Shown: piece by piece, positions 7,449-26,200 of the stretch
Layout of the letters: each line of letters begins with the position of its first letter
How positions within the stretch are numbered: position 1 is the first letter of the stretch
Origin: Gemmatimonadota bacterium
GTDB lineage: Bacteria; JBHIER01; G020348925
Assembly (NCBI GenBank): GCA_020348925.1
Contig: CP070758.1
Location: forward strand, 2,681,688 to 2,745,687
DNA: 64,000 bases
Reading direction: 5' to 3'
Position numbers and translations under genes: made by a program
Notes under the pieces: generated by a model
Seen by the model: only the letters and a program-made list of their open reading frames with translations
Told to the model about the DNA's origin: nothing
Database searches by the model: none

Positions 7449-9056
7449 ATGGCTAAGCGAATGTTAGTCATTGCCGCAGCGATCACACTCAGTTTTGTGA
7501 TCGCCAGTTTTAGAGGCTCTGGTGAGGGGACGGAGGTCGATGTCCGGAACCCGAAGCTTGATGTGTCTCCGACCGCCATTCCGGGGATGATAAATTACCA
7601 GGGTGTTTTGACGGATGCGAACGGGGATCCTGTGGCTGATGGTGCTTACGATATTACATTCAGGTTCTATAACGCAGCTACGAGTGGAGATCTGCTTTGG
7701 GAAGAAACCGAAAGTGTCAACACGTACGGTGGACTGTTTAATGTACTACTACCGATACCACATGATACATTTGACGGATCGGACCGCTGGTTAGGATTGG
7801 AGGTGGGTGAGGATGGGGAGATGGTACCCAGGCAGCAGATTGCCAGTGTGCCCTATGCCTATAAGACGGACGGCATTTATTCTGATGCTGAGGGCAACAT
7901 TGGTATCGGGACGACGAGTCCGAGGACGAAGCTTGAAGTGAATGGGACGGTATCTGCGAACGCGTTCTCCAGCACCAGTCCACTTATACTTGAGGCACCA
8001 GAAGGCACTGAGCGGATGCGCATAGATGATATCACGGGCAATGTCGGTATCGGAACAACAAATCCGAATCTTGACTTGTCTGTCGGTACATCGGGTGACA
8101 ATCGCTTTGGCCTCCAAAAAGGCGATGGTATGCTGGAGGCAGGATATTTGAGATTTGGAGACAATACTGGTTGGAGATTTCACATTGGTCGTGCGAGCGA
8201 ATCCTCTGGAGGTGAAATCAATACAGATCTAACGGGTGCGCTGGTGACTGTGCAAGACAACGGCAATGTCGGCATCGGGACGACCAGCCCGTCATCCAAC
8301 CTTCATGTTCGACGTTATGCAGACGGGTTCGAATCGGCGGCGGCGAGGATCGGGCTTCAGTGGTATCTGCCAGCACTCCCAGCGTCTATTAATAACTGGT
8401 TCTCCATTGAGGTTGGAGGCCAAGGGATAGGAGGATTGGGTAACAATCCGACACTGATTCGCGAATCGGGTTCGATGCTGTATTTTCAGACAGAAGACGC
8501 AATGAATTCCAATCCTTCCTCACGTTCTACGCAAATGGTCCTGGACGGTAACGGCAACATCGGTATCGGGACGACGAATCCGTTAGAAAAGCTTGATGTC
8601 AGAGGAACAACTCGGACCGATGTGCTCGAAATCACCGGTGGAAGTGACATTGCAGAACCATTTGACTTTGAAAATCCGGATTCGATTAAGCCGGGTATGG
8701 TTGTCGTAATTGATCCTGGAACTCCCGGGAAACTGAAGATTTCCGATAGGGCATATGATCGATGCGTTGCCGGTATAGTGAGTGGAGCAGGTGGAATAAA
8801 ACCAGGTTTGATGATTACTCAAGAGGATGCCTTTGAAGGTGACCATCAGGTGGCACTCACCGGTCGCGTCAATTGTTGGGCCGATGCGTCATATGGACCT
8901 ATCCAGCCTGGCGACCTGCTGACTACCTCAGACACCCCTGGACACGCCATGAAGGTCATGGACTATCCAAAATCCCATGGCGCTGTCCTTGGCAAGGCGA
9001 TGTCCTCACTGGATCAGAGTCAGGGACTTGTGCTGGTACTGGTAACTCTTCAGTAG
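7449..9056 (+). CDS. Secreted tail-fibre-like protein (INYQG N-domain, GNVGIGTT repeats, intramolecular-chaperone-like C-domain)
   Basis: Start reassigned to MAKRML (AAGGAGG RBS, signal peptide). 'INYQGVLTD...LWEET...RWLGLEV...PRQQIASVPYA', four G(N/I)VGIGTT.P-type repeats, 'GGSDIAE', 'GDLLTTS..PGHAMK...GAVLGKAM'. Confidence 0.8.
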   Translation: MAKRMLVIAAAITLSFVIASFRGSGEGTEVDVRNPKLDVSPTAIPGMINYQGVLTDANGDPVADGAYDITFRFYNAATSGDLLWEETESVNTYGGLFNVLLPIPHDTFDGSDRWLGLEVGEDGEMVPRQQIASVPYAYKTDGIYSDAEGNIGIGTTSPRTKLEVNGTVSANAFSSTSPLILEAPEGTERMRIDDITGNVGIGTTNPNLDLSVGTSGDNRFGLQKGDGMLEAGYLRFGDNTGWRFHIGRASESSGGEINTDLTGALVTVQDNGNVGIGTTSPSSNLHVRRYADGFESAAARIGLQWYLPALPASINNWFSIEVGGQGIGGLGNNPTLIRESGSMLYFQTEDAMNSNPSSRSTQMVLDGNGNIGIGTTNPLEKLDVRGTTRTDVLEITGGSDIAEPFDFENPDSIKPGMVVVIDPGTPGKLKISDRAYDRCVAGIVSGAGGIKPGLMITQEDAFEGDHQVALTGRVNCWADASYGPIQPGDLLTTSDTPGHAMKVMDYPKSHGAVLGKAMSSLDQSQGLVLVLVTLQ

Positions 9057-9165
9057 ATATTTAATTTGGTAAAGAGAGTTCAGAATTAAATTATGAAAAG
9101 AAAATTGGATACTCTATTCCATGGGGCAGACAGTCGCCAAGTAGCCAAACACCACCCAGGGAGGT

Positions 9166-9654
9166 ATGATCATGGATAGTCAGAAAGAGATGAGACGGTA
9201 TGTAGGCATAGATCTGATTTTGCTATTAATGCTTCTGGTGGCAGCACCGGTTGGGCAAGCTCAAACAGCCAACAACAACTTTCAAATTCGATCCTCTTCA
9301 TTGAATAGCGGAGGAGGACAAATGGCTTCAGCCAACTTCGGAATACAGTATTCCATGGGTCAACCGATACCCACTGGCATAAGCCAGGGCGAAAACTTCG
9401 CCATGTTTGCCGGATTTCAGCCAACTTACTTAGAGGAGTTTGTCCTGCCAACTGCTGAGAGGGGTGACGTCAATGGTGACGGAGGAATTAATGTGCTGGA
9501 TGTACTGGCCGTGGTAAACGACATTCTGGGTACAGTTCCTCTGACTGGAGACGCTCCTATAAGGGCAGACTGTAATGGTGATGAGGAGATCAATGTACTG
9601 GATGCGTTGGGTATAGTGAACGTTATTCTTGGGATCGCAAGTTGTGTACCATGA
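9166..9654 (+). CDS. Small secreted protein: SSxxxGG...SxGQP...FAGF motif + dockerin (putative fibre adaptor)
   Basis: GGAGG RBS, hydrophobic signal, a ~55-aa motif shared with the N-terminus of 13466..16864, and a C-terminal dockerin GDVNGDGGINVLD...ADCNGDEEINVLD...SCVP. Confidence 0.82.
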   Translation: MIMDSQKEMRRYVGIDLILLLMLLVAAPVGQAQTANNNFQIRSSSLNSGGGQMASANFGIQYSMGQPIPTGISQGENFAMFAGFQPTYLEEFVLPTAERGDVNGDGGINVLDVLAVVNDILGTVPLTGDAPIRADCNGDEEINVLDALGIVNVILGIASCVP

Positions 9655-9819
9655 TTACTGTGATTCTTGGGGAAATCAAACAACCGTGTTCAAAATATCG
9701 AACCTTTTATAAGACAATAGAGAGAATGTTTTCTTCAACTCTTGTTTTTCTTTTTTCTGCAGATATAAACCACTGTCTACCAATTCACTGTTTCTTAAGG
9801 CAATACGAAGGAGGAAGTC

Positions 9820-11157
9820 ATGAAATCTGTACGAACCTGTCAACAGCGGGGTCAGACACGATCTCTCGTTGTTTTGTGGACTGGGCTTCTGCTCGTCGCG
9901 CTGTTCAACCACCTCTTGCTGGCTGATATCGACGTTCCTGGCGATTACCCCACGATTCAGCAAGCCATCGACGCGGCGACTTTTGATGTTTTGATGATCA
10001 CTACATCCCTCCTCCAAAAGGATCCATGCTTTGATGGAATGATACATGAATACCAGAGCATTCTTGAAACAACAGAGAACCTAACTGCAGTCTATATTGA
10101 ATTGGACTCCGAGGAGTGTCTCAAAAATTATGGAGTCAAGGTGGAAAATACAGGAGACTGGATGGAAATCCGGGAAGTACTCGAGGTGATTATTGGAGCA
10201 ACAAACGCTTCATATGTAATAATTTTGGGAGGCATATCTGTCATACCCAGACCATCGCTCGAAATATATTGCCCAAGGGAGAACCCTCAAACCATTCCAA
10301 GCGACGTCTGGTATATCGATTTCGATGCTGACCAAATCGTAGATGAGGGGCTCTCGATTAGCAGATTTCCAGATCTGTTTCACAATTCATCGGCAGTGGT
10401 TGTTGCTCTTCGAAACGCAGTTTTACTTCACCGTTGCGGGGGATATACTCTCGAAAGGGAGGTACATTTCGTGATTGGCGAATACGAGACACCGCCTTAC
10501 GGGGTGTGTGAAGAGTGTACATTTCAGGCGGAGTTTTTTGACCTCTTATCGTCAAGCGATTACATTGACTTCGCGGGCCATGGTAGCCCAACCGCTATCT
10601 TTAACAATTCCTTCGAACCCAAGTTCACTATTGACTATATGGATTCAATCGATTTGCAGACTTACAACCCTGTGATACTAAGCTTGGGTCCTTGCTACAC
10701 TGGGGTCTTGTGGGCAGACAGTCCTACCCTATCCTATGAATTCTTGAAAGCGGGAGCTGCTGCCTTTGTTGGGAGAACCACTACTGAAGGCTATTGCATA
10801 GGTGATTTTGTTGAAGACGTGGAAGATGGAATGCATATCGGGGATGCCCTCTTCCAAAGAATGCGGATGAAGGTAATGACATCGGGGTGTAGATATATAT
10901 ATTGTTCTCACCATTTTTGCTTATATGGGGATCCGACTCTCAAGCTTCGCGATGGCCTCCCCGCCGGATTAATTGTCTACGTTGATTATTCTGTACCGCC
11001 GGGAGGGACCGGATTCTATGTTGATCCTTTCAGTAGTCTGCATGAAGCCCTCGGTCAAATGTGTATTCCAAGGACCATCAGGATGATGCCGGGCAGCACG
11101 GTGATCACAGAGACCATCGTCATTGATGTGCCAGTACGATTGGAAAAGGCACAATGA
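9820..11157 (+). CDS. Secreted C25 (gingipain-like) cysteine peptidase domain protein
   Basis: YVIILGG...IP, PSDVWY, ISRFP, FAGHGS (His), SLGPCYTG (Cys), GAAAFVG, LYGDP; AAGGAGG RBS; signal-like segment. Confidence 0.78.
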   Translation: MKSVRTCQQRGQTRSLVVLWTGLLLVALFNHLLLADIDVPGDYPTIQQAIDAATFDVLMITTSLLQKDPCFDGMIHEYQSILETTENLTAVYIELDSEECLKNYGVKVENTGDWMEIREVLEVIIGATNASYVIILGGISVIPRPSLEIYCPRENPQTIPSDVWYIDFDADQIVDEGLSISRFPDLFHNSSAVVVALRNAVLLHRCGGYTLEREVHFVIGEYETPPYGVCEECTFQAEFFDLLSSSDYIDFAGHGSPTAIFNNSFEPKFTIDYMDSIDLQTYNPVILSLGPCYTGVLWADSPTLSYEFLKAGAAAFVGRTTTEGYCIGDFVEDVEDGMHIGDALFQRMRMKVMTSGCRYIYCSHHFCLYGDPTLKLRDGLPAGLIVYVDYSVPPGGTGFYVDPFSSLHEALGQMCIPRTIRMMPGSTVITETIVIDVPVRLEKAQ

Positions 11158-11284
11158 AAACCCTAGGCCAACAGGTTGAAGTGCTGGTATCCAAGAGGGT
11201 CACCTATGAAAAAGTTGCAACTCCTCGATTTTGGGTATATCGTAAAGTCAGATAAGCGGAACCCAAAACCAAGGAGGTGCAACA

Positions 11285-12322
11285 ATGCAGTATGTCGGAA
11301 TCGATTTTCACAGGGACTCTTCATTCATCAGTGAGATGGATGAAGACGGAACTGTTGCCAGAGAGTTCAAGCTCAGCAATGATCGGGAAAGTCTCACCGA
11401 TTATGTGAGCGGCCTTGTTCCCGATACGAAAGTCGCCATTGAAGCCACCTGTAACTGGTATTATTTTTACGAGTTGGTCGAGGGGCATGATATCGATGTC
11501 ACGCTTGCTCATCCTCTCAAGACCAAAGCCATCGCTTCTGCCCGGATCATGAACGATAAAATCAGTTCCGCAACCCTGGCCTATCTGCTCCGTAGCGACC
11601 TGTTGCCGGCAGCATATATCCCTGACCGGGAGACACGAGACACCAAAGAGATTTTGCGTCAACGGGCCTTTCTGGTCTCCATGAGAACGCGCTTGAAGAA
11701 CAGAGTTCAAGCTATCCTTTCGAAAAATGGACTCTCCTGTCCCTATACCGACATCTTTGGTAAGAAGAGTCTCCGTTGGCTTACCGCACTCGATCTTCGC
11801 CCATGCTACCATCAAGCCATCGGATGCTATGCCCGCCTGGCTGATGTCTTTGCCAGCGAGATTAAAATGGTGACCGAGACAATCGAATCTTTCGCGATTG
11901 AGAACCCTCAAGCGCGCCTGCTGGATACGCACCCGGGAATCAGTTACTACTCGGGGCTGCTCATCACCTCGGAAATCGGAACCATTCATCGCTTCCCCTC
12001 TCACGGTCAACTCTGCTCCTTCGGAGGACTGGTGCCATCCCTTCATGCCTCCGGTGGGAAAGTGAGGCGGGGACATATTACGAAACAGGGTTCAAAATGG
12101 CTTAGATGGATCCTGATCGAATGTTCAAAACACGCCGTCAACGGTTCTCCTCACTATGAGGCCCTCTATAAGAGGGTGTGCTACAAACATGGAAAGGGGG
12201 CTGCCAGAATCGCCGTGGCCAGAAAAATGCTCAAGATCATCTATTATATGCTCAAAAGAAACGAGCCGTTCCAGGAACGGGCTAAACCGATGACCACGCC
12301 GGCCAGCGCCAGAGGGTCATAA
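11285..12322 (+). CDS. IS110-family recombinase/transposase (DEDD RuvC + Tnp domain)
   Basis: YVGIDFH, VAIEAT, NDKISS.TLA, PGIS, SEIGTIHRF, GLVPSLHASGG, GHITKQGSKWLRWILIE, ARIAVARKM. Confidence 0.95.
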   Translation: MQYVGIDFHRDSSFISEMDEDGTVAREFKLSNDRESLTDYVSGLVPDTKVAIEATCNWYYFYELVEGHDIDVTLAHPLKTKAIASARIMNDKISSATLAYLLRSDLLPAAYIPDRETRDTKEILRQRAFLVSMRTRLKNRVQAILSKNGLSCPYTDIFGKKSLRWLTALDLRPCYHQAIGCYARLADVFASEIKMVTETIESFAIENPQARLLDTHPGISYYSGLLITSEIGTIHRFPSHGQLCSFGGLVPSLHASGGKVRRGHITKQGSKWLRWILIECSKHAVNGSPHYEALYKRVCYKHGKGAARIAVARKMLKIIYYMLKRNEPFQERAKPMTTPASARGS

Positions 12323-12433
12323 CCAGAAAAGGTTCTAGGTGTTGATTGCGCAACCGGTGTCCAATAACATACTGTGCTCCGAGCACGAATAGGTGACTGA
12401 CGAAGAGTCCGCTGAGACTCTATTGGACCAGCA
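12296..12433 (+). ncRNA. Putative IS110 bridge RNA (target- and donor-binding loops)
   Basis: Stem ACGCCGG/CCGGTGT plus GCGC/GCGC encloses AGAGGGTCA-[AACC agaaaa GGTT]-TAGGTG. A second stem GTCCAATA/TATTGGAC encloses the hairpin GTGCTCCGAGCAC followed by ATAGGTGAC. Confidence 0.65.
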
Positions 12434-12492
12434 CTATGTCAAAGAACAACGAAGAATGACTTGACAACAGGATTTTCTATGATAATTTAAGA

Positions 12493-12592
12493 NNNNNNNN
12501 NNNNNNNNNNNNNNNNNNNNNNNNNNNNNNNNNNNNNNNNNNNNNNNNNNNNNNNNNNNNNNNNNNNNNNNNNNNNNNNNNNNNNNNNNNNN
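12493..12592. other. 100-N contig spacer
   Basis: Run of exactly 100 N; unrelated truncated sequences on either side. Confidence 0.95.
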
Positions 12593-13217
12593 CGCTCTGA
12601 TCACAGCAATCGGTATCCAACTCGTCACAGACTTTTACCAGACAGGTTGTCGAAGAGATTACCGGAATCGTCCACTCATAGGTGCCGTCGTCAGGAGTAC
12701 TGCCGATCACTTCCAGCCAGTTCGAACCATTGTCCGTCGAATACTCGATTTTCACATTGCCACTCGTATGCTGTGATAGCCAGGTAATATTTTCAGTTGC
12801 CTGCTCACACCACATCTCTCCGCCATTGGGACTGGTTACGGTGATTTTCTTGATGGTAAAGCTGCCATTGCTTTGATCCCAGCAGGAGGGATCCGTCACA
12901 TCACAGATTTTCACCAAGCAGTTCGATGAAGGCGTATCTGGAATCGTCCAGGAATAGGCGCCATCATCCGGAGTACTGCTGATCACTTCCTGCCAGTTCG
13001 AGCCGCCATCTGTTGAGTACTCGATCTTTGCATCACCACTGGTATTCGACGAGGACCACGTTATATCCTGGATTTCACCCGCGCACCAGGTTTCACTCCC
13101 ATTCGGTGCGGTCACCGTGACCGTACATTGAGCGAAGGACATTGAACTCCAAAACAGAAACATCACACAAGCCATTATCCATACACCATGTATCGCGCTG
13201 CTTGACAGCCGTTTCAT
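12593..13217 (-). CDS. Secreted protein with tandem 'TVTSPNGGE.WC' Ig-like domains, 3' truncated by gap
   Basis: Signal peptide followed by two copies of SPNGGE...KIEYSTD.GSNW..V..STPDDG.Y.WTIP...S..CLVK.CD, the same module found in 466..2148 and 2186..3883. Confidence 0.8.
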
Positions 13218-13465
13218 CGTCTCTCTGCCTTTCCCATTGAAATGAATTTTTATATAATTTCTGTGAATGGCTCACCACTTCACAGGTGTACCACACATCT
13301 TACAAATTAATAAACGGATAATCAAATTCTCTTCACACTCAGTAATATATCAACCAATATCTAACCTATCCTTCATACCCTCTATCTGGATGCCCATATA
13401 CCTCTATATTATACCCGTTATCTTATACCTCTCTCTTATCAGTGTAATCCGTGCAGTCGGCGGAT

Positions 13466-16400
13466 TTATTTCATCAAGACCATTTTTCTGATTGAAGCGA
13501 ATTCTCCCGATTGAAGTCGGTAAAAATACACGCCACTGGCAACCTCCACACCCCTTTCGTCACATCCATCCCAGGTGGCCGTGTAATATCCGGGTTCCTG
13601 AACCTCATCCACCAGACATCGCACTTCCTGTCCCATCATATTGTATATGAGAAGTGTAGTGCGAAAGGCATCAGGCCCTGAGCCCGTGCCTTCATTTCCA
13701 CTCTCCGCTCTCTGCTTTCCGCTCTGCGCCCTGAATTCCCTGCCGGAGATAGTATACTGGATGTGGGTAGTGGGATTAAATGGGTTCGGATAGTTCTGAT
13801 CCAAGGTAAACTCTGTCGGCAATGGTACAATTTTGACCGTGGAAGTAAATAACAGTCCTTCGTCGGCTATCGCCGATATGTCCGCTTTGACATGTGACAA
13901 TTTTGCAAATGTAATCGTAATCTGTGAAAACGTATTTTGGGAAGCTGCCGCTAATTGGAAATCGTTTTCCCCGTTGTGCCACTCAAACATCGCTCCCTCA
14001 ATCTCGACACCAACAGGTTCGGAATCACCCAGATTTTTGAGGGTGAAATCCAGACCATAGGCAGGCTCGGGCAGCGTAAAAGAGACCGTATGTGATCCAA
14101 CTTCGACAGTAATCCCACCATCTATTAACTTAGGACTGAATAGTCCAGGCCAGTTCATACTGACATCTCCGACAAGCATGCCCAGGAAATCCTGATCGGT
14201 TGTATCATGACTGAGGGACTGATAGCAGATTTCTCGAGGGAGGAATATCCACTGGCCTGTCATGTTGTTCGACGATTGGTCAAGCCCGGCATTTCCAGAA
14301 ATCACATACGTGAGCAACTGTGAAGCGTCATAGGCAGTGACTGTGCCATCTCCGGTAATATCGGCGGCTGCATACCTGCAGGAGTCAAGATCGATCACAC
14401 CGACCAATGCCCGCAAAATGAGAGAAGCGTCATAGGATGTAATGGTTTGAGTGCCTGTACCCTCTTTCGAGGGGACGACACAATATTCCCCCGTCGAGCC
14501 GTACAGATGGTAAAATCCATAATCGCCGTTTTCGTCTGTGTTTGTCGTCTGGACCGAGTCTATGGATCCATCCAGATCCACATCCCAGCTCAGGGTCATA
14601 AGCGTATTCCCCAGAGGCACACCCGTGCTGCACTGGGCGACATTCCCAGTGATGGCATGACGGATGACCGTGAAGACACCTTCATCGGTGCAGGCCAGGG
14701 GAAGACCTTCGTTAAATTTCGCATGATCGACGAACAGGAAGTTGCAATCGCCCTCATCGGCTTCAGGATTGATCCAGAAACCGACATACAGAATATCGTA
14801 CCAGGTCCACTGGGGACCGGGTTGAAGCAGGGGATAATTGCCGGCCATGGCCGCATAGATTTTTGCACGTTCCTCATCGTGGTGATGGGTCAATATCCCC
14901 CAGTCTTCAGTGATGAGACCTTCGTTACCTATCTCACCCACCGTCATCAAGTTCGGGTCGTAGGATAATTCCACGTATATCGAGGTGACATTCAGATCGG
15001 CCAGAGGTTTGTAATCGGTATGGAGGCGTAACGGAATTTCCAACCAACCGCCGGCATGCCAGGCCGTATCAGGCCAGGCCAACATGATTTCGCAATCCCT
15101 GACAATAATGGTTGTCGAGAGCACGTCGTACAAAGGCTGGCCGGTCGTATGGGTTGACTTGGCGATAAAATCAATATCCAAGGTATCACATGTCCCGTGC
15201 TTCGGGGGTCGCCAGCAGAAATCCATCTTCACCGATCCCAATCCCAACACTGTGTCTTCGCCGACACCGTCGCACGAATCGGGATCCAAATCAGACCACA
15301 GCATGATCGAATCGTTATCGGCGTCCATGGCTATGATCTCAATGCAATCCTCATAAAACTCCTCACTGAAATAGAGTGTTTCCGGTAATGAAGATGTAAT
15401 TCTTGGAGGTCGATTGACGATCACGATACCTTTTTCTGTGGTCGTCGTTAGCGAGCCTTCATCGAAGATTGCTTCGACAATAGAGATGAATCCTTCATTT
15501 CCAGGGCTGGCTGAGGAATTTATGTGAAAACCCAGGTTCAGCAGACACCCCCCGCATTCAATCCCCCCTGAGGCGTCTCCGCCTCCGATAAGCCAGAATT
15601 GTATGGTGCCGGGAGTCCCCCCTTTGTAATGCCACTTCAGGTCCCATCCCAGGGAATCGAGGCAGGTGTTATGAAAATTGATGGTTGAATCGAACGTCAT
15701 GACACCCGTGTTGTAGGAGATTTCTCCATAAAAGGTGTTGACATACAGACCGCTCAGATCGTCGGTTGAGAGACAGACGGTGAAGGACGAGTCCGGCTTT
15801 TTGATGACAACCGCCGGTTCGATTCTCATCGTAATCTTCGGCATAGCCTGGCTCTCATCGATGGCGAAGACAAAATCTTTGGAATGCGTGAGATTGTCTT
15901 CGGCATTTCCGACAATCGTGACCGTGTACAGACCCGGATCGGCAGCCATTGATGAGTTCATGGTGAATATGGACACGATCGCCTCATTGGGCAAGGGTGT
16001 GACCGGATTGGGGAAAAAGCCGGCCGCGACCCCGTCCGGCACCCCTACAGCACTTAGCGTTACCGTTTCATTGAACCCAAAGAGCGACATAATCGTGTTT
16101 CTGACAAGAATGGCCCCCCGCTGGGAGACCACCGCCGGATCGGGATTGATGGACAAGGAGAAATCCGGTTTGTCGATCACATGCAGTTTTATCTCATCCG
16201 TGTGATGGAGCATGCCGGTTTTGTCCATACCCAGAACAATCAACGGATACGAGCCCACATCAGTTGACGCAGAAGCTTTCATCATTAACGTGGAGCTCGC
16301 TTTTCCGGCCTGGGGTGGTGTCACGGGATTCGGATCGAAACAGGTCAGCAGGCTGCAACACAGATTGCAGACACTCAAATACACGAGATCCGTGAAACCG

Positions 16401-16864
16401 TAAGCAGAAAAAATGTTCACAGTGTATGTAGCCGTCTCCCCATAGTTGCCTGCCAACAGAAGAGATCCTTTCATCGGTGACCCGGGATGGATGACAAAGG
16501 CTTCCTTGGGGAGAACCTGGATCGTAAAATCGGGATTGCCGAAGAAGGGATCAAAATCTTCCGGGATGATATCGAGAAACTCATCACTGCCCAGGGTGTA
16601 AATGAATCCCGCAAAGTTACGAAACGGTCCGTTCCAGGAAAAGCCTATGGCATTCGGTTGCCCGCCGGAACAGACCGTAATTCTATACGATTCTGAAGCA
16701 GCGGGACAGCCGACACCACTGACAACCGATGATGTGATCATGTAGTCCTCGCTGAAATACCGCTCCTGGGCACAGCATTGTGATACAGTGAACTGGATGG
16801 CAAGACAGATCAACAGGCCGATTACCTTTCCCGCACGTCGCCTCATCTTCTTACCGGTTATCAT
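13466..16864 (-). CDS. Scaffoldin-like secreted protein: adaptor motif, 2 Ig-like 'PDF' domains, 2 cohesin-like domains, dockerin, FlgD-Ig/T9SS-type CTD
   Basis: Cohesin-like segments 'FTVCLSTDDLSG...GEISYNTGVMTF...LLNLGFHI...EAIFDEG' and 'LEIPLRL...VELSYDPNLM...ILYVGFWI...AKFNEG'; dockerin 'ITSYDASLIL...AADITGDGTVTAYDAS'; CTD 'QNYPNPFNP...VASGVYFYRL...RKMVLMK'. Confidence 0.8.
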   Translation of the reverse strand: MITGKKMRRRAGKVIGLLICLAIQFTVSQCCAQERYFSEDYMITSSVVSGVGCPAASESYRITVCSGGQPNAIGFSWNGPFRNFAGFIYTLGSDEFLDIIPEDFDPFFGNPDFTIQVLPKEAFVIHPGSPMKGSLLLAGNYGETATYTVNIFSAYGFTDLVYLSVCNLCCSLLTCFDPNPVTPPQAGKASSTLMMKASASTDVGSYPLIVLGMDKTGMLHHTDEIKLHVIDKPDFSLSINPDPAVVSQRGAILVRNTIMSLFGFNETVTLSAVGVPDGVAAGFFPNPVTPLPNEAIVSIFTMNSSMAADPGLYTVTIVGNAEDNLTHSKDFVFAIDESQAMPKITMRIEPAVVIKKPDSSFTVCLSTDDLSGLYVNTFYGEISYNTGVMTFDSTINFHNTCLDSLGWDLKWHYKGGTPGTIQFWLIGGGDASGGIECGGCLLNLGFHINSSASPGNEGFISIVEAIFDEGSLTTTTEKGIVIVNRPPRITSSLPETLYFSEEFYEDCIEIIAMDADNDSIMLWSDLDPDSCDGVGEDTVLGLGSVKMDFCWRPPKHGTCDTLDIDFIAKSTHTTGQPLYDVLSTTIIVRDCEIMLAWPDTAWHAGGWLEIPLRLHTDYKPLADLNVTSIYVELSYDPNLMTVGEIGNEGLITEDWGILTHHHDEERAKIYAAMAGNYPLLQPGPQWTWYDILYVGFWINPEADEGDCNFLFVDHAKFNEGLPLACTDEGVFTVIRHAITGNVAQCSTGVPLGNTLMTLSWDVDLDGSIDSVQTTNTDENGDYGFYHLYGSTGEYCVVPSKEGTGTQTITSYDASLILRALVGVIDLDSCRYAAADITGDGTVTAYDASQLLTYVISGNAGLDQSSNNMTGQWIFLPREICYQSLSHDTTDQDFLGMLVGDVSMNWPGLFSPKLIDGGITVEVGSHTVSFTLPEPAYGLDFTLKNLGDSEPVGVEIEGAMFEWHNGENDFQLAAASQNTFSQITITFAKLSHVKADISAIADEGLLFTSTVKIVPLPTEFTLDQNYPNPFNPTTHIQYTISGREFRAQSGKQRAESGNEGTGSGPDAFRTTLLIYNMMGQEVRCLVDEVQEPGYYTATWDGCDERGVEVASGVYFYRLQSGEFASIRKMVLMK

Positions 16865-17067
16865 AATCGTTACTCCTTGATTGTACCAGTTTCATCTCCA
16901 TTGAAAGGTCTGCCTTCCACAACCCGCAAACCAATTTGTTGAAGCTTATGATCACGACATATTGCCTTGTGAGTTGCGTGGCTCTCTTCCAGATTTGTTG
17001 GTGATGCTTGTATATTTTTCCCAGAGCTCGTCTCTCAATCCACTCGGCTCGCCTGGATGTGGTGGAT

Positions 17068-19101
17068 TCACTTCGATTTGCTTTCTTCTGTGACCATTGT
17101 GGTTCTATGATCGGGCCCTTCCTGACTGAGTAAAGCTTCCAGTTTTTCGACTCTCGACTCCAATTCCGCGAGTGACTCCAACCTGGACTCCAGTTGTTGA
17201 ATCTTCTCCTGTTGTTGCTCCAGGATCTCAACCAATTCATTCGTTTTTGTCCCGATGAGGACATTGATCAGATTCATCCTGTCGTTGGTTGAAGCAGACC
17301 AGGCCCGGCCCAAAACTTGAGAGACATGCGCTAAACGGAGATCCTCCGGGGATACGGCGATACCGGTGCCATCATCATTACCCGATGGTACGATATAATC
17401 CCCCATTTCTACCGAACCGCGCACCAGAACTCGTACCTGTCCCAAAAAGCCCACCTTGACATATCCGCTTTCCTCACCTTTCGGAGGCATATTTCCCACG
17501 ACGACGGGATTGACCGATACAGCCATGATCTGGTCAGTGCCCGCCGTTGTCTTCGAAACCTTGCCATCATGCACACCGACGAGTTGACTAAAGGACATTT
17601 TCTCCTCAGGATCGAGCTTGGGAAGCCATTCAGCATAATCTGCCCCTCCGGAGGCATACGTAACACCTCCGTGATTGCACTTATTTTGTTCATCAAGGAT
17701 AACAACAGCCAGCATCAAATCGAATGGATCGGCTGTGATTAAATTTTCGTACCCATTATCTAATGCCCAGCAAATTAAGGGTTGTAATTCTTTTCTTGCA
17801 GCCGTTTGCATCGCAGAAAAGCCTAAAAAATCGAACCAAGGAATTTTTCCATCTATCTTTGTTAATTCCGGAATGATTCCGGGGTTGAAACCTATGCTCG
17901 GCCAATCAATGTCAATATCTACATCTAAATCCCAGTCTACATCAATATCGATATCCCAGTCGCTCAGCAGGCTGAATCCCCATGGCATCTTGCCAGGAGA
18001 CCAGTTTGTGAGCTCAAACATTTTACCTGGATCAAACATTCCAGTAAGATCAAACATTTTCTTAAAATCAGGCATTGGTGGAAGGCTCATAGCGTCATCT
18101 GGATACGTGAATCCTTCAATCCTGCCCGCGACAGTATTGCTGGTTGCGCTTCCCCTGTAAAATGTCATGAAATGGTTGTCGCTGCTTGTATTTTCTTTTC
18201 GCAGCTTAATGGCTACACCATCCTCATTCCCCCCGTCGGTATTCTCAAAATAGGCTACGTGTTGACCATCAGGTCCCATTTGACCTGGGCCCACGACCTT
18301 CAGTCCGCTGCCTATTATGTTATGAGCAACGTTCAGATTATCCCCAACGCCCACTCCACCCTCTACTACTAAAGCGCCTGTCCCTGGAGAGATCGAGGGA
18401 GTTGTGTCGGTGACATACACTTGTCCTGTTATGGTCACATCGCCATCCAGATACGCCGCCTCGTTGCCTCCGCCACCTTGCGCGTACAGGCCTTGGAAGT
18501 TGTCTGAGACAAAGTATCCTCCGTAGCTTGAGGTCCCTTTACCCCAGCCCTTCACCCCATTGCCGCCGTTTGTCATGCCCAAAATACCATCGCCTGCGCA
18601 TTCGTTGATGACGGTTAAGAAAGGGATGTCAGGAGCGCATCCGCCCATGGTATCAGCTCTGTCAGAACATAGGAACTGGTCGGCGTGTTTGCCGTCCAGC
18701 ATATTCGAATTCAGAGCGCTTGGCACGCTCACCAGAGGCTGTCTCGGCCGCATCTCCGAGTTCGATCCGATTTGAACCCCGAGCCATCTTTCCCCGCCCT
18801 CATTGAAGGCAGTGTCAGGTATTCCATCCGGACTCAAACTGCCCAAAAGCACATTGTAGACACCACCCCATACGACCACCGAGTGATGGGTCTCTGTCCA
18901 CAAAGGAGCGCCCTCTTCCGGTATATTATAGATGGAGAAGGTGATGGACAATGTATCGTGGACAATATTTCCTTGGAAATCTACCAATCTCCCCTGGTAA
19001 TTGATGACTCTGGCAGGGGGGGCAAACTGGGCGAATGTTGATTCAATTCCCAGAGCGACGAATATCATTGCGACCCACAACAAAAGTTTGAACGACTTCA
19101 T
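17068..19101 (-). CDS. Secreted tail-fibre-like protein (INYQG N-domain, chaperone-like ADYAE C-domain, coiled coil)
   Basis: Start reassigned to MKSFKLL (GGAGG RBS, signal peptide). 'INYQGRLVD...LWTETH...RWLGVQI...PRQPLVSVPSA', 'GALVVEGGVGVG', 'SGGADYAEWL...VGFLGQV', terminal heptad coiled coil. Confidence 0.8.
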   Translation of the reverse strand: MKSFKLLLWVAMIFVALGIESTFAQFAPPARVINYQGRLVDFQGNIVHDTLSITFSIYNIPEEGAPLWTETHHSVVVWGGVYNVLLGSLSPDGIPDTAFNEGGERWLGVQIGSNSEMRPRQPLVSVPSALNSNMLDGKHADQFLCSDRADTMGGCAPDIPFLTVINECAGDGILGMTNGGNGVKGWGKGTSSYGGYFVSDNFQGLYAQGGGGNEAAYLDGDVTITGQVYVTDTTPSISPGTGALVVEGGVGVGDNLNVAHNIIGSGLKVVGPGQMGPDGQHVAYFENTDGGNEDGVAIKLRKENTSSDNHFMTFYRGSATSNTVAGRIEGFTYPDDAMSLPPMPDFKKMFDLTGMFDPGKMFELTNWSPGKMPWGFSLLSDWDIDIDVDWDLDVDIDIDWPSIGFNPGIIPELTKIDGKIPWFDFLGFSAMQTAARKELQPLICWALDNGYENLITADPFDLMLAVVILDEQNKCNHGGVTYASGGADYAEWLPKLDPEEKMSFSQLVGVHDGKVSKTTAGTDQIMAVSVNPVVVGNMPPKGEESGYVKVGFLGQVRVLVRGSVEMGDYIVPSGNDDGTGIAVSPEDLRLAHVSQVLGRAWSASTNDRMNLINVLIGTKTNELVEILEQQQEKIQQLESRLESLAELESRVEKLEALLSQEGPDHRTTMVTEESKSK

Positions 19102-20273: not shown

Positions 20274-23200
20274 CTATTTCATCAGCACCATCCGCCTGGT
20301 GGCCGTGAATTCGTTCGCCTCGATCCTAAAGAAGTAGACGCCACTGGCCACTTCATTACCCGAACCATCCTTGCCGTCCCAGGTGACAACGTAATACCCC
20401 GCCTCCTTTGATTCATCCACCAGCGTCCGCACCTCCTGCCCCAGCATGTTGAACACTTTCAGGGTGGTGTGGATGGGTGATCCTCCATCCGCTATCTGAT
20501 ATCTGATATCTGTGCTGGGGTTGAAGGGGTTCGGGTAGTTTTGAGCCAGGCTGTACTCACTTGGTAGCGGAACGATCCTGGCCGTGGCGGTCAGTACGGT
20601 CCCCTCATTCACCAGCGCTGAGACGTCCAGCACAGTATGTTTCAGCTCGGTAAAAGCGATCCTAACCTGGCCGAACTCCCTCTCACTGGCTATCGCCATC
20701 CGGAGTGCATCCCCCTCGACCAGCCACTCCACCACGGCTCCCTCAATCTCAATACCGACAGGACGAAGACTGGACACGTTCTTGAGAACCAGATCCGCAG
20801 CGCTGATCGACTCGGTAAAAGTGAGCGTGACAGATGACCCGCTGACGTCAATGTCAATCCCGCCTGTCACGGCCTTCGGTCCCGGCGGACCAGGCCAGTT
20901 CCTGGTCACATCACCAACCAGGACGGCGTAAAAATCCTGATCCATCACATCATCTTTGATCGAGACCGTACACCGCAGCGGCGGGAAGAAGAGCCACGTT
21001 CCGATTTTATTCTGGGGGATAAGAGGAGCAGGTGAATTTTGGGTGACAACATATTTCAACAATACCGACGCATCAAAGGCGCTGACCTCGCCGTCCCCGG
21101 TCACATCCGCCGCCGCCAACTGGCAGGAATCGAGTGTCACTGCTCCGACGATGCTTCGCAGGATGAAGGTGGCATCGTAGGATGTGACCGTCTGATACCC
21201 GATATCGCCGTCCTTCGATGGTGTGAGGCAATACTCCCCGGTCGAGCCGTAGAGATGATAGAAGACGTAATCGCCGCTGATATCGGTGGTATCCAGCTTC
21301 ACCTCATCAATGAGACCGTCGAGATCCTTGTCCCAGGTCAGGGTCATCTCCACATCTTCCAGGGCCACGCCTGTCGAACAGTACGCCACATGTCCGGCAA
21401 TCGCATGGCGGATAACGATAAAGATACCGTCTTCAGTGCAGGCTATGGGTGAGCCCTCGTTGAATTCCACACGCTCAATACAGAGATAGCTGCAGGCACC
21501 CTCCTCAGCCTCAGGGTTGATCCGGAAGCCGACGTACAGAATATCGTACCAGGTGCAGATGGGATCGGACTGGGGTAAGGGGTAATTGCCGGCCATGACG
21601 ATGGCGATTCTGCCATTCTCCTGGTCGACGTTGGAGTTCAACACCCCCCAGTCCTCGGTGATGAGCCCCTCATTTCCCACTTCGCCCACCGTCATCAGCT
21701 CCGGATCGTAGCACAACTCCAGAGAGACCGAGGTCACATCGAGATCAGCCAGCGGCTCGTAGTCCGGATGGATCCGCACCGGTATCTCGATCCAGCCCCC
21801 GGCGTGCCAGGAAGTGTCCGGCCAGGCCACCAGGATCTCGCAGTCCCTCACGACGATGGTCACAGAGAGGGTATCGTACAACGGCTGACCGGTGGTATGC
21901 GTGGACATGGCGATGAAATCGATGTCCAGCGTATCGCACCCGCCCAGCTTCGGCGGCTCCCAGCAGAACTCCAGGAAGGTTGACCCCCAACCCCGAGCCG
22001 TATCCTCCATGGCCCCGTCACACGGCTCAGGGTCCATCTCCGACCACAGGACGATGAAGTCGTTGTCCGCATCCGCGGCCACGATCTCAAAGCAGCTCTC
22101 ACTCAGTTCATGGAAATAGAGCGTATCCGGCACTGATGCGATGATTTGAGGCGGGCGGTTGACGATCACCAGCCCATGCCTGATGGTGAGGAGCAGTGAA
22201 CCCTCATCGAAGATGACATCCTCTATAGTAAGAAGGCCCGTATCGCCCGGGGTCGCTGCGGGATGGATATTGAAACCCAGATTGAACAGACACCCGCCGC
22301 AATTGATCCCCTCCGAGGCCTCACTTCCACCGATGAGCCAGAACTGCAGGGTGTCCTCAGCCCCGTCCTTGTAATGCCACGTCATATTCCAGCCAGAGGA
22401 ATCGAGACAGGAGTTCTCAAAGGTGATGGTCGAGTCGAACCGGATGACGGTCGTGTCAAAGGAGATCTCTCCGTACAGGGTATTGACGTACAGGCCGGTC
22501 AGGTCATCGGAAAACAGGCAGACAGTAAAGTGCGAGTCCGGCTTCTGGATGACCAGCGGCGGATCAATGCTCATGGTGATGGCCGGCTCGATCCCGCCCT
22601 CTTCAATAATGAGAAGAAAATCGTCACTGCGGATGAGGCTGTCCCCGGCCTCGCCGGTAACAGTAATCCAATACTCTCCCGGCAGGGCAGCTATTGATGA
22701 ATGGACGGTCAAGACGGCGTCGATCGATCCGTAGGGTAGAGGCGTGACGGGGTTGGGGAAGAAGCCGGATGTCACACCCTCCGGCAAGCCGGAAACGCTC
22801 AACGCCACCGCCTCATTGAAGCCGAGAAGAGACCGGACGGTGGCCGTGATCACTACGGCCCCGCGCCGGGACACAACCGCTGTGTCCTGGGCAACCGAAA
22901 GATCGAAGGAAGGCTCGCCGATCACCTTCAGGCTCACCTCATCGGTATGACGCAGCATGCCGGTCTCATCTGAGCCCTGGATTATGAGCGGATAGGGACC
23001 TGTCCCGGTCGTGGCTGAGGCCCGCACTGTCAGCGTTGCGTACGTTGTATCATTTGGCGGCGGGACGACGGGATTGGGATCGAAGTTCGCGATCAGGTCG
23101 CAGCACAGGTTGCAGACGCACAGGTGGACCGGCGCGCTGAACCCGCCGATGGAGATGACCATCACCGTAAAGGTCGCCGTCTCATCGTAGGCGATGTCCA

Positions 23201-26200
23201 TCATGTCCGCATTTCTTGCCATTGCGCCAGGCAGGATCACGACCTGCTCTGTCGGATACGCCACCACAATGAAATCGGGCTCTTCGCACGCATCACCTGT
23301 GCCGTTACCGTTCACATCCTCCTGACCGGGATTGGGCACTGCCGGACAGTTGTCCATATCACCGCAGATCCCGTCACCGTCCGCATCGTTATCAGGATCG
23401 CTGGGACAGGCGTCGCAGGCATCACCCAAACCGTCGCCGTCCGCATTCTCCTGCCCGGGATTGAAGATGGCCGGGCAGTTGTCCACGTCGCCGGGGATAC
23501 CATCCCCGTCGGCGTCGTTCTCAGGATCGTAGGGATAGGGATCGCAGACATCACCCATGCCGTCGCCGTCGGCATCTTCCTGGCCGGGGTTACTGTCGGC
23601 CAAACAGTTGTCGCAGGCATCCCCGGCTCCGTCCCCATCCCCATCGGCCTGATCCTCGTTGGTCACATCGGGGCAGTTGTCGCAACCATCGCCCCTGCTA
23701 TCACCATCACCGTTCTCCTGGCCGGGATTGGCTGCGGCCGGGCAGTTGTCGCAGACGTCCCCGACGCCGTCCCCGTCGCCGTCGGCCTGATCCTCGTTAT
23801 CGACCGCAGGGCAGTTGTCACAAACATCGCCGATACTGTCCCCGTCCCCGTCCTCCTGGCCCGGATTCGCTGTGGCCGGGCAGTTGTCCACGTCACCGCA
23901 GACGCCGTCGCCGTCACTATCGTTATCAGGATCAAGCGGACAACCATCACAGGCATCACCCAGGCCGTCGCTGTCCCCATCCTCCTGTCCGGGGTTGGCT
24001 GTGCCCGGGCAGTTATCCACATCACCGCAGAGGCCGTCGCCGTCAGCATCGTTATCCGGATCATTCGGACAGGCGTCGCAGGCATCACCCAGGCCGTCGC
24101 CGTCCCCATCCGACTGGGCCGGATTCGGTGTGGTTGGGCAATTATCCACGTCGCCGCACACGCCGTCACCATCGGCATCATTATCAGGATCGTTCGGACA
24201 GGCGTCGCAGGCATCGCCTATACCATCACCATCCCCATCCTCCTGATCGGGATTAGACGCTGCCGGACAGTTGTCGCAGGCGTCCCCGACGCCGTCCCCG
24301 TCTTCATCGGCCTGATCCTCGTTATCGACCCCAGGGCAGTTGTCACAAACATCACCGACGCCGTCGCCGTCACCGTCCGCCTGGCCGGGATTGGACACTG
24401 CCGGACAGTTGTCCACGTCGCCGCACATAGAGTCGCCGTCTATATCATTGTCAGGATCGTTGGGACAGACATCGCAGGCATCGCCCTGGCCGTCGCCGTC
24501 CGCATCCTCCTGACCGGGATTGGGTACAGCCGGGCAATTGTCCATATCGCCGCAGATCCCGTCACCGTCGCTATCATCATCAGGGTCATCGGGACAGACA
24601 TCGCACGCATCGCCCGCTCCATCGCCATCGCTGTCCTCCTGGCTGGGATTGAATACGTCCGGACAGTTGTCCACATCCCCGCAGGCACCGTCTCCGTCTC
24701 CATCGTTCTCAGGATCGTTGATGCAGACGTCGCAGACGTCGCCGATGCCGTCGCCGTCCTCGTCCGTCTGGGCCGGGTTGGATGCGACCGGACAATTGTC
24801 GACGTCACCGCAGACCCCGTCACCGTCAATATCGTTGTATGAATCATTGGGACAGCCGTCACAGACGTCGCCGATACCGTCGCCATCCCCATCCTCCTGT
24901 CCGGGGTTGGCTGTGGCCGGGCAGTTGTCCGCATCCCCACAGATGCCGTCTCCATCCTCATCATTGTCAGGATCATCCGGACAACCGTCACAGGCATTGC
25001 CCAGGCCATCACCATCGCTGTCCTCCTGCCCGGGGTTGGATACGGCCGGACAGTTGTCCACGTCACCACAAAAGCCGTCTCCGTCCCCATCGTTATCCGG
25101 ATCATTGGGACAGTCGTCACACGTATCACCTGTCCCATCTTTATCCCAGTCCTCCTGTCCGGAATTGGGTGTGGCCGGACAGTTGTCCGCGTCGCCGCAG
25201 ATCCCGTCACCGTCGATATCGTTATCAGGGTCGTCGGGACAGGTGTCACAGGCATCACCGAGCCCGTCCCCATCAGCATTCTCTTGGAAAGGATTGGGAT
25301 CGCCGGGACAGTTGTCCGCGTCGCCGCAGACTCCGTCACCGTCGATATCATTGTCAGGGTCGTCGGGACAGTCGTCACACGCATCGCCCGCTCCATCACC
25401 ATCGCCATCCTCCTGAAGCGGGTTGGGATCATCGGGGCAGTTGTCCACATCACCGCAGATCCCGTCTTCGTCACCATCGTTATCCGGATCGTTCGGACAG
25501 GAGTCACAGGCATCACCCATCCCATCCCCGTCCCAGTCCTCCTGCCCGGGATTGAATACGGCCGGACAGTTGTCCGCGTTGTCCGGAATGCCATCCCCGT
25601 CGCTGTCGATACTCCCACCCAGAGAACCGTTTTCGTATACCCTCTGGGCATAGATATCCCAATGAGCTCCCGAGCGAAAATCGTTCCAGGTGATAATGGC
25701 CCTGCCAGTCCCGTTCGTGACGATGGTGGGATCTTCCTGATATCTCGATGCGATGCAGATGGCGACCCCATCGGCCGTCCACAGGGGCGTGCCCCAGGCG
25801 TCCACACGCTGAGCGTAAATATCGCGGTAGGATGCGGCACGATCGTCCTCCCAGGCGATGACGGCCCCATTGGCCCCGTCTGAAGCAAGGACAGGGTGTC
25901 TCTGATCTCTCGAAGCCGTGCAGATGGGTACCCCGTCGGCCGTCCACAGGGGCATGCCCCAGGCGTCCACCCGCTGGGCATAGATGTCACTGGAAGTGCC
26001 GGAACGCTCGTCCCCCCAGGTGATGACGGCCCCGCCGGACCCGTCCGAAACGACGGTCGGATACCTTTGATCCTCAGGAGCCGTGCAGACGGCGGCACCG
26101 TCGGCCGTCCACAGGGGCGTGCCCCAGGCGTCCACACGCTGGACGTATATGTCACTGGACGTGCCGGATCGTTCGTCCCCCCAGGTGACGATGGCCCCGC

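Follow-up and report, generated by a model that had tools for sequence, protein, structure and literature searches.

How exported fibres that resemble phage tail fibres and carry no anchor of their own might be held at a bacterial surface is the question raised by a window of 64,000 nucleotides (nt) of a Gemmatimonadota genome (assembly GCA_020348925.1, contig CP070758.1). All coordinates given below are positions in this window, the whole stretch of DNA that was analysed, unless said otherwise. The window holds two fibre genes, fib1 (7449..9056, + strand) and fib2 (17068..19101, - strand), whose products share an N-terminal domain referred to as the INYQG domain. Each of them is followed by a gene whose product bears, just behind its signal peptide, a module of about 57 residues made of three 19-residue repeats and referred to as the motif. 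The first of these genes, ad1 (9166..9654, +), encodes a small putative adaptor and starts 109 nt past the end of fib1, while the second, scaf2 (13466..16864, -), encodes a scaffold protein and starts 203 nt past the end of fib2. Locus 1 and locus 2 are separated by a contig join in the form of a run of 100 N (12493..12592). The motif is probably the docking site of the fibre N-domain, by which the fibre would be mounted on the anchor or cargo to which the motif is fused. Physical binding is what we infer here, on the directly observed basis of gene linkage, co-occurrence, repeat structure, modular fusions, a natural fusion and co-diversification, and the idea of an adaptor is strongly backed by comparative genomics.

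The fibres and the three-repeat motif

The fib1 product (535 amino acids, aa) begins with a signal peptide and the INYQG domain (7572..7898, +; 109 aa, the first row of an alignment of 23 paralogues), which are followed by four GN[IV]GIGT repeats and a C-terminal domain ending in LVLVLVTLQ. The Pfam scan assigned it neither a family nor an anchor domain, and it matches tail-fibre families of the PHROG database (phrog_9942, E 5.9e-17; phrog_18345, E 1.5e-11). In the fib2 product (677 aa), the signal peptide and the INYQG domain (18676..19011, -; phmmer E 5.6e-17 to fib1) are followed by a Gly-rich shaft, a weak IMC-like domain (Peptidase_G2 IMC, 20.9 bits against a cut-off of 25) and a coiled coil at the C-terminus, and no dockerin, sorting or other anchor domain was found in the Pfam scan. 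Peptidase_S74 is absent from the Pfam matches of both fibres, which are presumably trimeric, judging from their homology to fibres. A sequence-only reading of the window had described two INYQG fibre genes on different contigs, neither with a dockerin or C-terminal sorting domain; the coordinates proved right, the 100-N gap lies between the two genes and the Pfam scan showed neither kind of domain. The same reading had named GNVGIGT repeats as a mark of homotrimeric fibres; fib1 has four repeats of this type and fib2 has none.

In the ad1 product (162 aa), the signal peptide and the motif (9265..9447, +; 61 aa, with the repeats NNFQI / ANFGI / ENFAM) are followed by a type I dockerin (Dockerin_1, PF00404; 43.9 bits over residues 100-152, passing the gathering threshold of 22.9). 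The much longer scaf2 product (1132 aa) displays, behind its signal peptide and motif (16571..16759, -; 63 aa, EDYMI / ESYRI / GPFRNFAGF), a cohesin-like body, a dockerin (Dockerin_1, 29.5 bits over residues 806-853, passing the same threshold) and a C-terminal sorting domain of the type IX secretion system (T9SS). This T9SS tail is recognized by FlgD_ig (PF13860; 32.3 bits versus a threshold of 27) and is borderline for TIGR04183 (22.6 versus 23). The Cohesin family (PF00963) matches scaf2 weakly, at 18.3 bits and under its gathering threshold of 24.1, and reaches 25.8 bits on the homologous body of a 2259-aa neighbour. The arrangement first described, a fibre gene and then a motif gene, with the motif on a dockerin only in locus 1 and on the cohesin/T9SS-tail scaffold in locus 2, was found to be accurate.

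The family consensus of the motif reads sSanY.i.w.ViasGGG.. / sS.sY.L..TiGQP.iG.S. / SanY.L.aGFW, and each repeat begins with S-S-x-[NS]-[YF]-x-[LI]. The division into three repeats of 19 residues follows from the self-similarity of the family profile, which peaks only at offsets 19 (-0.28) and 38 (-0.29), the other offsets from 1 to 44 lying between -0.97 and -1.56; this periodicity confirms the three internal repeats initially noticed in ad1. Taken alone, the similarity between the two window motifs is weak. Their stretches share 33% identity over 61 columns, phmmer with the scaf2 N-terminus as query retrieved ad1 only at E 0.2, and the reverse query missed scaf2. A profile trained on 193 motif instances from library proteins alone nevertheless detects ad1 (E 2.1e-16) and scaf2 (E 1.2e-8), with the caveat that those library proteins had been retrieved by a profile containing both window rows. 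It also recovers the same 12 open reading frames (ORFs) of the genome, the next match being at E 0.14. By this profile, the mature N-termini of ad1 and scaf2 belong to one family, as their alignment had suggested. The motif family has no Pfam match, name searches of protein records returned close relatives or entries labelled 'hypothetical protein' only, and a search of the ESM Atlas gave leads only (scores of at most 0.81). The searched literature, which did not extend to the supplements of PMC10769870 and of the PamT preprint, holds no description of the motif or of a fibre adaptor.

In the 5.04-Mb genome, the INYQG domain was detected in 23 ORFs (phmmer, with the fib1 N-terminus as query) and the motif in 12 (profile search). 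Ten of these 12 motif ORFs lie on the same strand as an INYQG fibre ORF and within 1.5 kb of it; random placement gave 0.15 on average and never more than 3 in 20,000 trials. The eleventh (genome positions 213170-215446) comes after an ORF that shares 51% identity with the last 400 residues of a paralogous fibre, the N-terminus of the preceding fibre having been lost in a contig gap, and the twelfth is truncated by such a gap. Initially, three of the 12 gave weak matches (E 9e-4, 0.003 and 2.2), all of them directly downstream of a fibre gene. The two domains have also diversified together: N-domain subfamilies pair with motif subfamilies among the 10 paralogous pairs, and the distances between N-domains correlate with those between motifs (Mantel r 0.575, reached by 3 of 10,000 permutations), a correlation that could also arise if the two genes were duplicated together, with no binding needed.

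Conservation across genomes and fusion partners

With an alignment of the fibre-domain subfamily alone, 45 loci were fetched from more than 15 phyla, comprising Omnitrophota, Ignavibacteria, Planctomycetia, Latescibacteria, Zixibacteria, WOR-3, Fermentibacteria, Patescibacteria/Saccharibacteria, Elusimicrobia, Armatimonadota, Bacteroidota, Eisenbacteria, Marinimicrobia, Myxococcales and others. In an unbiased first pass, performed with a motif profile built from the own genome only, 7 of the 45 loci matched at E < 0.01. After iteration of this profile, for which 14 weak matches hand-picked by pattern and position were added, a motif ORF was found in 19 of the 45 (18 at E < 1e-3 and one at 0.014). 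The motif shares the strand of the fibre in all 19, and the two ORFs are at most 30 nt apart in 13. At three loci (L044, L056 and L059), a giant ORF located directly behind the fibre genes shows a faint resemblance to the motif (E 0.36-3.4).

A sample of 300 other genomes, all but one labelled 'same domain' and thus from other lineages, was searched with the motif profile (E <= 1e-3) and the fibre-domain profile (E <= 1e-5). Up to 15 candidates per genome were scored, and 135 fibre-domain matches were listed, with 36 more beyond these. The motif is present in 33 of the 300 genomes (57 matches) and the fibre domain in 52. Of the 33 genomes with the motif, 31 have the fibre domain as well (Fisher 6e-26, related genomes not being independent). 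Occurrence of the motif independently of INYQG genes, which would have spoken against the proposed coupling, is not the pattern observed across genomes. Among the 57 motif matches, 34 lie within 6 kb of a listed fibre-domain match, all 34 on the same strand, with the motif downstream in 20 cases and upstream in 14; an earlier and smaller run had given 7 of 9 motif matches adjacent to a fibre domain. The adjacency of the motif to INYQG genes across genomes, which the sequence-only reading had pointed to from two loci, corresponds to a conserved two-gene module.

The motif profile was also compared to 1.84 billion cluster representatives, of which 7,769 matched at E <= 1e-3 and 291 at E <= 1e-10, and architectures were counted in the best 150 library proteins. 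The motif lies within the first 70 residues in 128 of these and is internal in 22, and two or three tandem copies are present in 38. As many as 66 Pfam families were recorded in the 150 proteins, among them Dockerin_1 (37), Big_13 (14), Big_3_3 (10), Y_Y_Y, FlgD_ig and Por_Secre_tail (8 each), Peptidase_M23 (6), CHU_C (4) and CHAP, NAGPA and Cohesin (2 each). A number of proteins of 900-1650 aa with NAGPA, Big_13 and Y_Y_Y domains (P0011, P0012, P0017, P0021 and others) have two motif copies in tandem a long way from the N-terminus, with a dockerin behind these copies in at least P0017.

At the fibre-linked loci, the motif is joined to a dockerin only (L030, L032, L047), to a T9SS tail only (L023, L040, L042, L051, L054), to Kelch (L046) or to nothing recognisable (L027, L039, L055, L058). 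Giant proteins of Omnitrophota (L024, L029, L034) and Planctomycetia (L035) combine it with RHS_repeat, TcdB_toxin_midN, FG-GAP and Ig domains. Paralogues in the own genome join it either to a dockerin and a T9SS tail or to TSP3, MopE and a T9SS tail. In the neighbour of locus 2, a 2259-aa surface protein (20274..27053, -), N-terminal repeats and 17 TSP type 3 repeats precede the cohesin/dockerin/T9SS-tail body known from scaf2, and residues 111-1132 of scaf2 are 56% identical to residues 1259-2259 of the neighbour. This neighbour is not among the motif matches in the profile searches of the genome ORFs. Because the scaf2 body recurs in this protein under a different head without the motif, the motif can be regarded as a swappable head on a shared scaffold. 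The proposal that the motif is carried by interchangeable anchors was therefore borne out, for a dockerin, a dockerin with a T9SS tail, a T9SS tail alone and a cohesin scaffold. Motif-headed proteins of other phyla also include large secreted cargo, namely Rhs/TcdB-type toxins, Laminin_G giants and M23 and CHAP hydrolases, as well as a PamT-like pilus protein. The modular fibre display system put forward at first accounts for the modular anchors and is too narrow for the toxins, hydrolases and pilus protein; as the motif heads both anchors and cargo, it would be a general fibre-coupling module and not a display anchor only.

Both partners are united in a single chain in the library protein P0135 (247 aa), which consists of a signal peptide, an INYQG domain (37-139), a linker of about 35 residues and a motif (175-225), with no fibre shaft. 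P0151, originating from another contig, is the same single-chain fusion and is 57% identical to P0135 over its full length. Fusion of two separately encoded parts is classical evidence of joint function, and in this case it points to the N-domain, rather than the shaft or tip, as the likely partner of the motif. P0135, P0151 and P0058 also share a similar C-terminal tail, R-[IV]-[YF]-L-P-L-[VI]-[LM]-[RK], which may be an unrecognised C-terminal sorting signal.

AlphaFold2 modelled the N-domain of P0135 as a confident beta-sandwich (predicted local distance difference test, pLDDT, 95-97). The stretch with its motif (residues 170-227) was returned at a pLDDT below 50 and with no docking pose, from an alignment that had depth only over the N-domain. 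The ad1 motif modelled alone (83 rows) gave a mean pLDDT of 52 and a predicted template modelling score of 0.22, i.e. no autonomous fold was predicted, which fits folding on a partner and does not demonstrate it. Fold searches with the N-domain retrieved generic Ig-like/FnIII sandwiches only (Foldseek best E 0.016; VIA best Z 7.1, no outlier), and sequence searches of the PDB with the motif and N-domain alignments gave chance-level matches only. MAFFT put repeat 1 of 24 motif rows on the first strand of the N-domain (columns 36-55; xxNYQGxLxDxxG versus xxNYxIxxxxxxxGG), which could reflect an artefact, or else imitation of this strand by the repeats or pairing with it.

A number of other genes accompany the two loci. 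A gene for a C25-like (gingipain-family) peptidase (9820..11157, +; Peptidase_C25, 34.3 bits) lies directly downstream of ad1, and peptidase genes are found between the fibre and motif genes in two paralogous loci, one M43-like and weak (L005:985-2193, -; 19.8 bits) and the other a Peptidase_C10 (L008:4329-6008, -; 101 bits). A secreted peptidase is thus a possible third member of the cassette. An ORF of 330-358 aa with weak matches to RHS_repeat, DUF2963 and MORN_2 lies between the fibre and motif-scaffold genes of the two scaf2-type paralogous loci (L002:2400-3473, +; L003:2485-3477, -), and locus 2 of the window is devoid of it. Locus 1 is flanked by transposase-like ORFs at 5336-6547 (+) and 11285-12322 (+), by eye of the Mutator/IS256 type and the IS110 type. 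The ORF at 12477-13217 (-) encodes an exported protein with two repeats of about 90 residues (SPNGGE..W...I.W......G.VKIEYSTD.GSNW) and runs into the contig gap; its Ig-like matches are all sub-threshold.

Docking of the fibre and its alternatives

The coupling proposed here can be briefly summarized as follows. An anchorless fibre would be mounted non-covalently on whatever the motif module is fused to. In the own genome, the chain would lead from the fibre through the motif-dockerin adaptor ad1 to the cohesins of T9SS-tailed scaffolds and from there to the outer membrane; alternatively, the fibre would sit directly on the motif-headed scaffold scaf2. In other phyla, the module would couple a receptor-binding fibre either to an anchor, such as a T9SS-sorted stub or a PamT-like pilus, or to cargo, such as an Rhs/TcdB-type toxin or a peptidoglycan hydrolase. 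All the parts of the putative fibre-to-anchor chain are available in the own genome, since it holds cohesins (at least 81 matches), dockerins (at least 148 matches, with the best 150 of 527 dockerin candidates scored) and a full-length PorU sortase (738 bits versus a cut-off of 420). This is an unusually large complement of cohesins and dockerins for 5 Mb, and T9SS tails are numerous as well. A 1:3 geometry with one repeat per fibre subunit, suggested by the three repeats, is more tentative than docking itself and is given slightly less than an even chance.

In addition to the hand-picked matches and the possible duplication of gene pairs mentioned above, several observations weigh against docking. 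About half or more of the fibre genes are without a neighbouring motif gene: 12 of the 23 fibre ORFs of the own genome (some bordering gaps), 26 of the 45 fibre loci at E <= 0.05 (several cut by contig ends) and 97 of the 135 listed fibre-domain matches, for which no motif lies within 6 kb (38 have one). Conversely, 23 of the 57 motif matches have no listed fibre domain within 6 kb on their own contig. These are in part technical misses, due to short contigs and to fibre matches beyond those listed, and one match counted as a miss, G192:C27, adjoins a fibre domain by a separate comparison with the MAT_N profile. Tandem and internal motif copies are unexpected for a simple N-terminal plug, and three equivalent repeats are not universal, repeat 1 being degenerate in the Omnitrophota variants L024 and L034. 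Finally, G150, the sole sampled genome with matches over the cut-off of the Bdello_MAT_N profile NF053851 (5 matches), has no motif (best E 0.45) and no match to the fibre-domain profile. As this genome with genuine Bdello_MAT_N domains lacks the motif, the module does not yet explain Bdellovibrio itself.

The observed linkage could also be obtained without any binding if the motif were an N-terminal tag read by machinery for export, processing or modification to which the fibres are subject as well, the genes being neighbours by co-regulation as surface components. The position of the motif near the signal peptide in 128 of the 150 proteins, the very different cargo behind it (66 Pfam families), the many fibres devoid of a motif neighbour and the recurrence of peptidase genes would all suit such shared handling. 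The loci showed no conserved gene for such a machine, however, internal and tandem copies are unusual for a sorting tag, and sorting is already supplied by anchors such as T9SS tails. The fusion of N-domain and motif and the co-diversification of their subfamilies likewise fit a partner better than a tag, and we consider shared handling unlikely.

The order of the genes calls for a second comparison, as tail-fibre assembly proteins are encoded downstream of phage fibre genes. The motif protein could, in the same way, transiently template or chaperone the trimerisation of the N-terminal end of the fibre and be absent from the final structure. The motif does lie downstream of the fibre in 20 of the 34 linked cases, and three repeats could template three chains. 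It lies upstream in the other 14, however, its fusion to anchors and to proteins of 1000-2700 aa would be needless for a chaperone, and fib2 possesses a weak IMC-type C-terminal domain of its own. Little probability is therefore attached to a role restricted to assembly.

Runs of two to four fibre genes with one motif gene behind them are found at one locus of the own genome (4026637-4034463, L007), at L024, L044, L048 and L056, and at G223:C4:290380-294869; these fibres may be alternative tips that share one socket, or each adaptor may hold several of them. A multivalent rack, in which each repeat or motif copy would hold one fibre trimer and several fibres would be bundled instead of plugged 1:3, could account for these loci and for the tandem motif copies, but it is hardly probable given that a single fibre gene accompanies a single motif at most linked loci, that a repeat of 19 residues offers little room for the interface with a whole trimer and that the tandem genes are equally readable as alternative tips.

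Docking of the fibre N-domain on the motif is thus the preferred reading, and it can be extended further. In the extended form, a conceivable one that we nevertheless lean against, the motif would be a universal plug-and-socket joint of the cell surface, present in more than 15 phyla, in which the three-repeat chain clasps the trimeric N-domain of MAT-type fibres with one repeat per subunit, as a Sec-pathway counterpart of PAAR/VgrG. Fibres would then be hung on cohesin scaffolds and T9SS anchors, Pam pili would be fibre-tipped via PamT, and Rhs-type toxins and M23/CHAP hydrolases would be given a targeting fibre. If true, this would supply the mount that has long been sought for MAT-like fibres, as well as a principle by which exported polymorphic toxins are delivered.

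A description of adhesive, phage-like fibres on the cells of a bacterium, Bdellovibrio, appeared in 2024 (PMC10769870), and the relevant passages of that paper leave open how their constant N-domain is fastened. The motif is a specific and very widespread candidate partner for such N-domains, and the public sources that name it say 'hypothetical protein'. Since only two small parts are involved, an N-domain of about 110 residues and a motif of about 57, binding is experimentally accessible. If docking is true, one joint would be re-used for adhesion, for pilus tips and for cellulosome-like surface assemblies, and it could target the toxins and lysins secreted by uncultured lineages that may be predatory or epibiotic, such as Omnitrophota and Saccharibacteria. 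The cohesin-dockerin toolbox would also gain a new module for protein-protein coupling.

Comparison with known systems

Among the closest known systems are the mosaic adhesive trimer (MAT) fibres of Bdellovibrio bacteriovorus, distant relatives of the fibres described here. According to the passages concerned in Caulton et al. 2024 (PMC10769870), their N-domain presumably binds a surface element yet to be identified, and the corresponding part of a 2026 review (PMC13689555) adds nothing further on this partner. Both systems comprise exported proteins resembling phage tail fibres, in large paralogous families (23 members here) with a constant N-domain and variable shafts and tips, and in both the N-domain is expected to bind a surface element. 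They differ in that no S74 domain is present here and in that a candidate partner is encoded next door. The suggested kinship of the N-domain with Bdello_MAT_N (NF053851, cut-off 60) was substantiated as distant homology and not as family membership: fib1 scores 20.7 bits (E 2.9e-4), fib2 has no match and the best match in the own genome reaches 31.9 bits. In the 300-genome sample, many INYQG domains match NF053851 positions 2-78 at E 1e-7 to 1e-11, and the INYQG domain of G075, which a motif gene adjoins, matches positions 8-145.

A second point of contact is the Pam pilus of the candidate phyla radiation (CPR), of which PamT is the predicted tip protein (PMC13278184; NF058579). A 'tail fibre-like protein' is mentioned as conserved in pam neighbourhoods in the pertinent sections of PMC13278184 and is not linked to PamT there. 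The ad1 product matches the PamT profile at 26.8 bits (E 3e-6) over positions 2-80 of 241, missing the cut-off of 240, and scaf2 has no match. Two Saccharibacteria motif proteins match the N-terminal 80 or so positions at E 1.4e-9 and 4.5e-8. A more extended match (E 5e-15, PamT positions 5-146) was obtained with a 253-aa motif protein of G069, a genome of 0.8 Mb, in which the PamT-like gene precedes chaperone-like and pilin-like ORFs and a 2472-aa INYQG fibre. The first 80 or so profile positions, corresponding to signal peptide and motif, are therefore common to these proteins; only this N-terminal motif is shared, and the scores stay far below 240. The G069 fibre (L066, G069:C1:733000-752500, ORF 10757-18175) carries about 330 residues before its INYQG domain, with an integrase-SAM-like region and a hydrophobic helix. 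In this CPR-like genome the fibre may itself be membrane-anchored, the PamT-like motif protein being encoded 7 kb upstream.

Phages provide a further parallel in the adaptors of their receptor-binding proteins (RBPs), such as the T7 fibre, attached to the tail by its N-domain, or the branched RBP anchors of Klebsiella podophages. By analogy, a trimeric fibre would be attached by its N-terminal domain to a separate adaptor, with exchangeable tips; the motif partners described here differ in carrying cellular sorting and anchoring domains. No relative of the INYQG domain was found in IMG/VR (pattern and tblastn searches), and tblastn of two N-domains against 50,697 phage records returned no match. 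The possibility that the motif is a remnant of a phage baseplate was rejected, as the N-domain is absent from the phage collections searched. The tail-fibre passages of a polymorphic-toxin survey (PMC3482391) and of a preprint on Omnitrophota giant genes are without this module.

The small ad1 adaptor also resembles the adaptor scaffoldins of cellulosomes, as its type I dockerin would plug cargo into a cohesin scaffold. The cargo here would be a fibre held by a new motif and not an enzyme with its own dockerin, and the scaffolds are anchored by T9SS tails instead of SLH domains or sortase.

The nearest working analogue is probably the PAAR/VgrG pair. A PAAR protein is a single three-repeat chain sitting on a trimer and is often fused to Rhs toxins and other effectors; such proteins reportedly cap the VgrG trimer of type VI secretion, as Shneider and colleagues are said to have described in 2013. 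The Pfam families matched by ad1 and scaf2 at E <= 0.01 do not include PAAR, and the resemblance is one of function and not of homology. The proteins considered here are Sec-exported, and the proposed partner is the N-domain of a fibre rather than the tip of a beta-helical spike. What the two systems would have in common is a three-repeat chain, its fusion to Rhs proteins and a trimer that carries the cargo.

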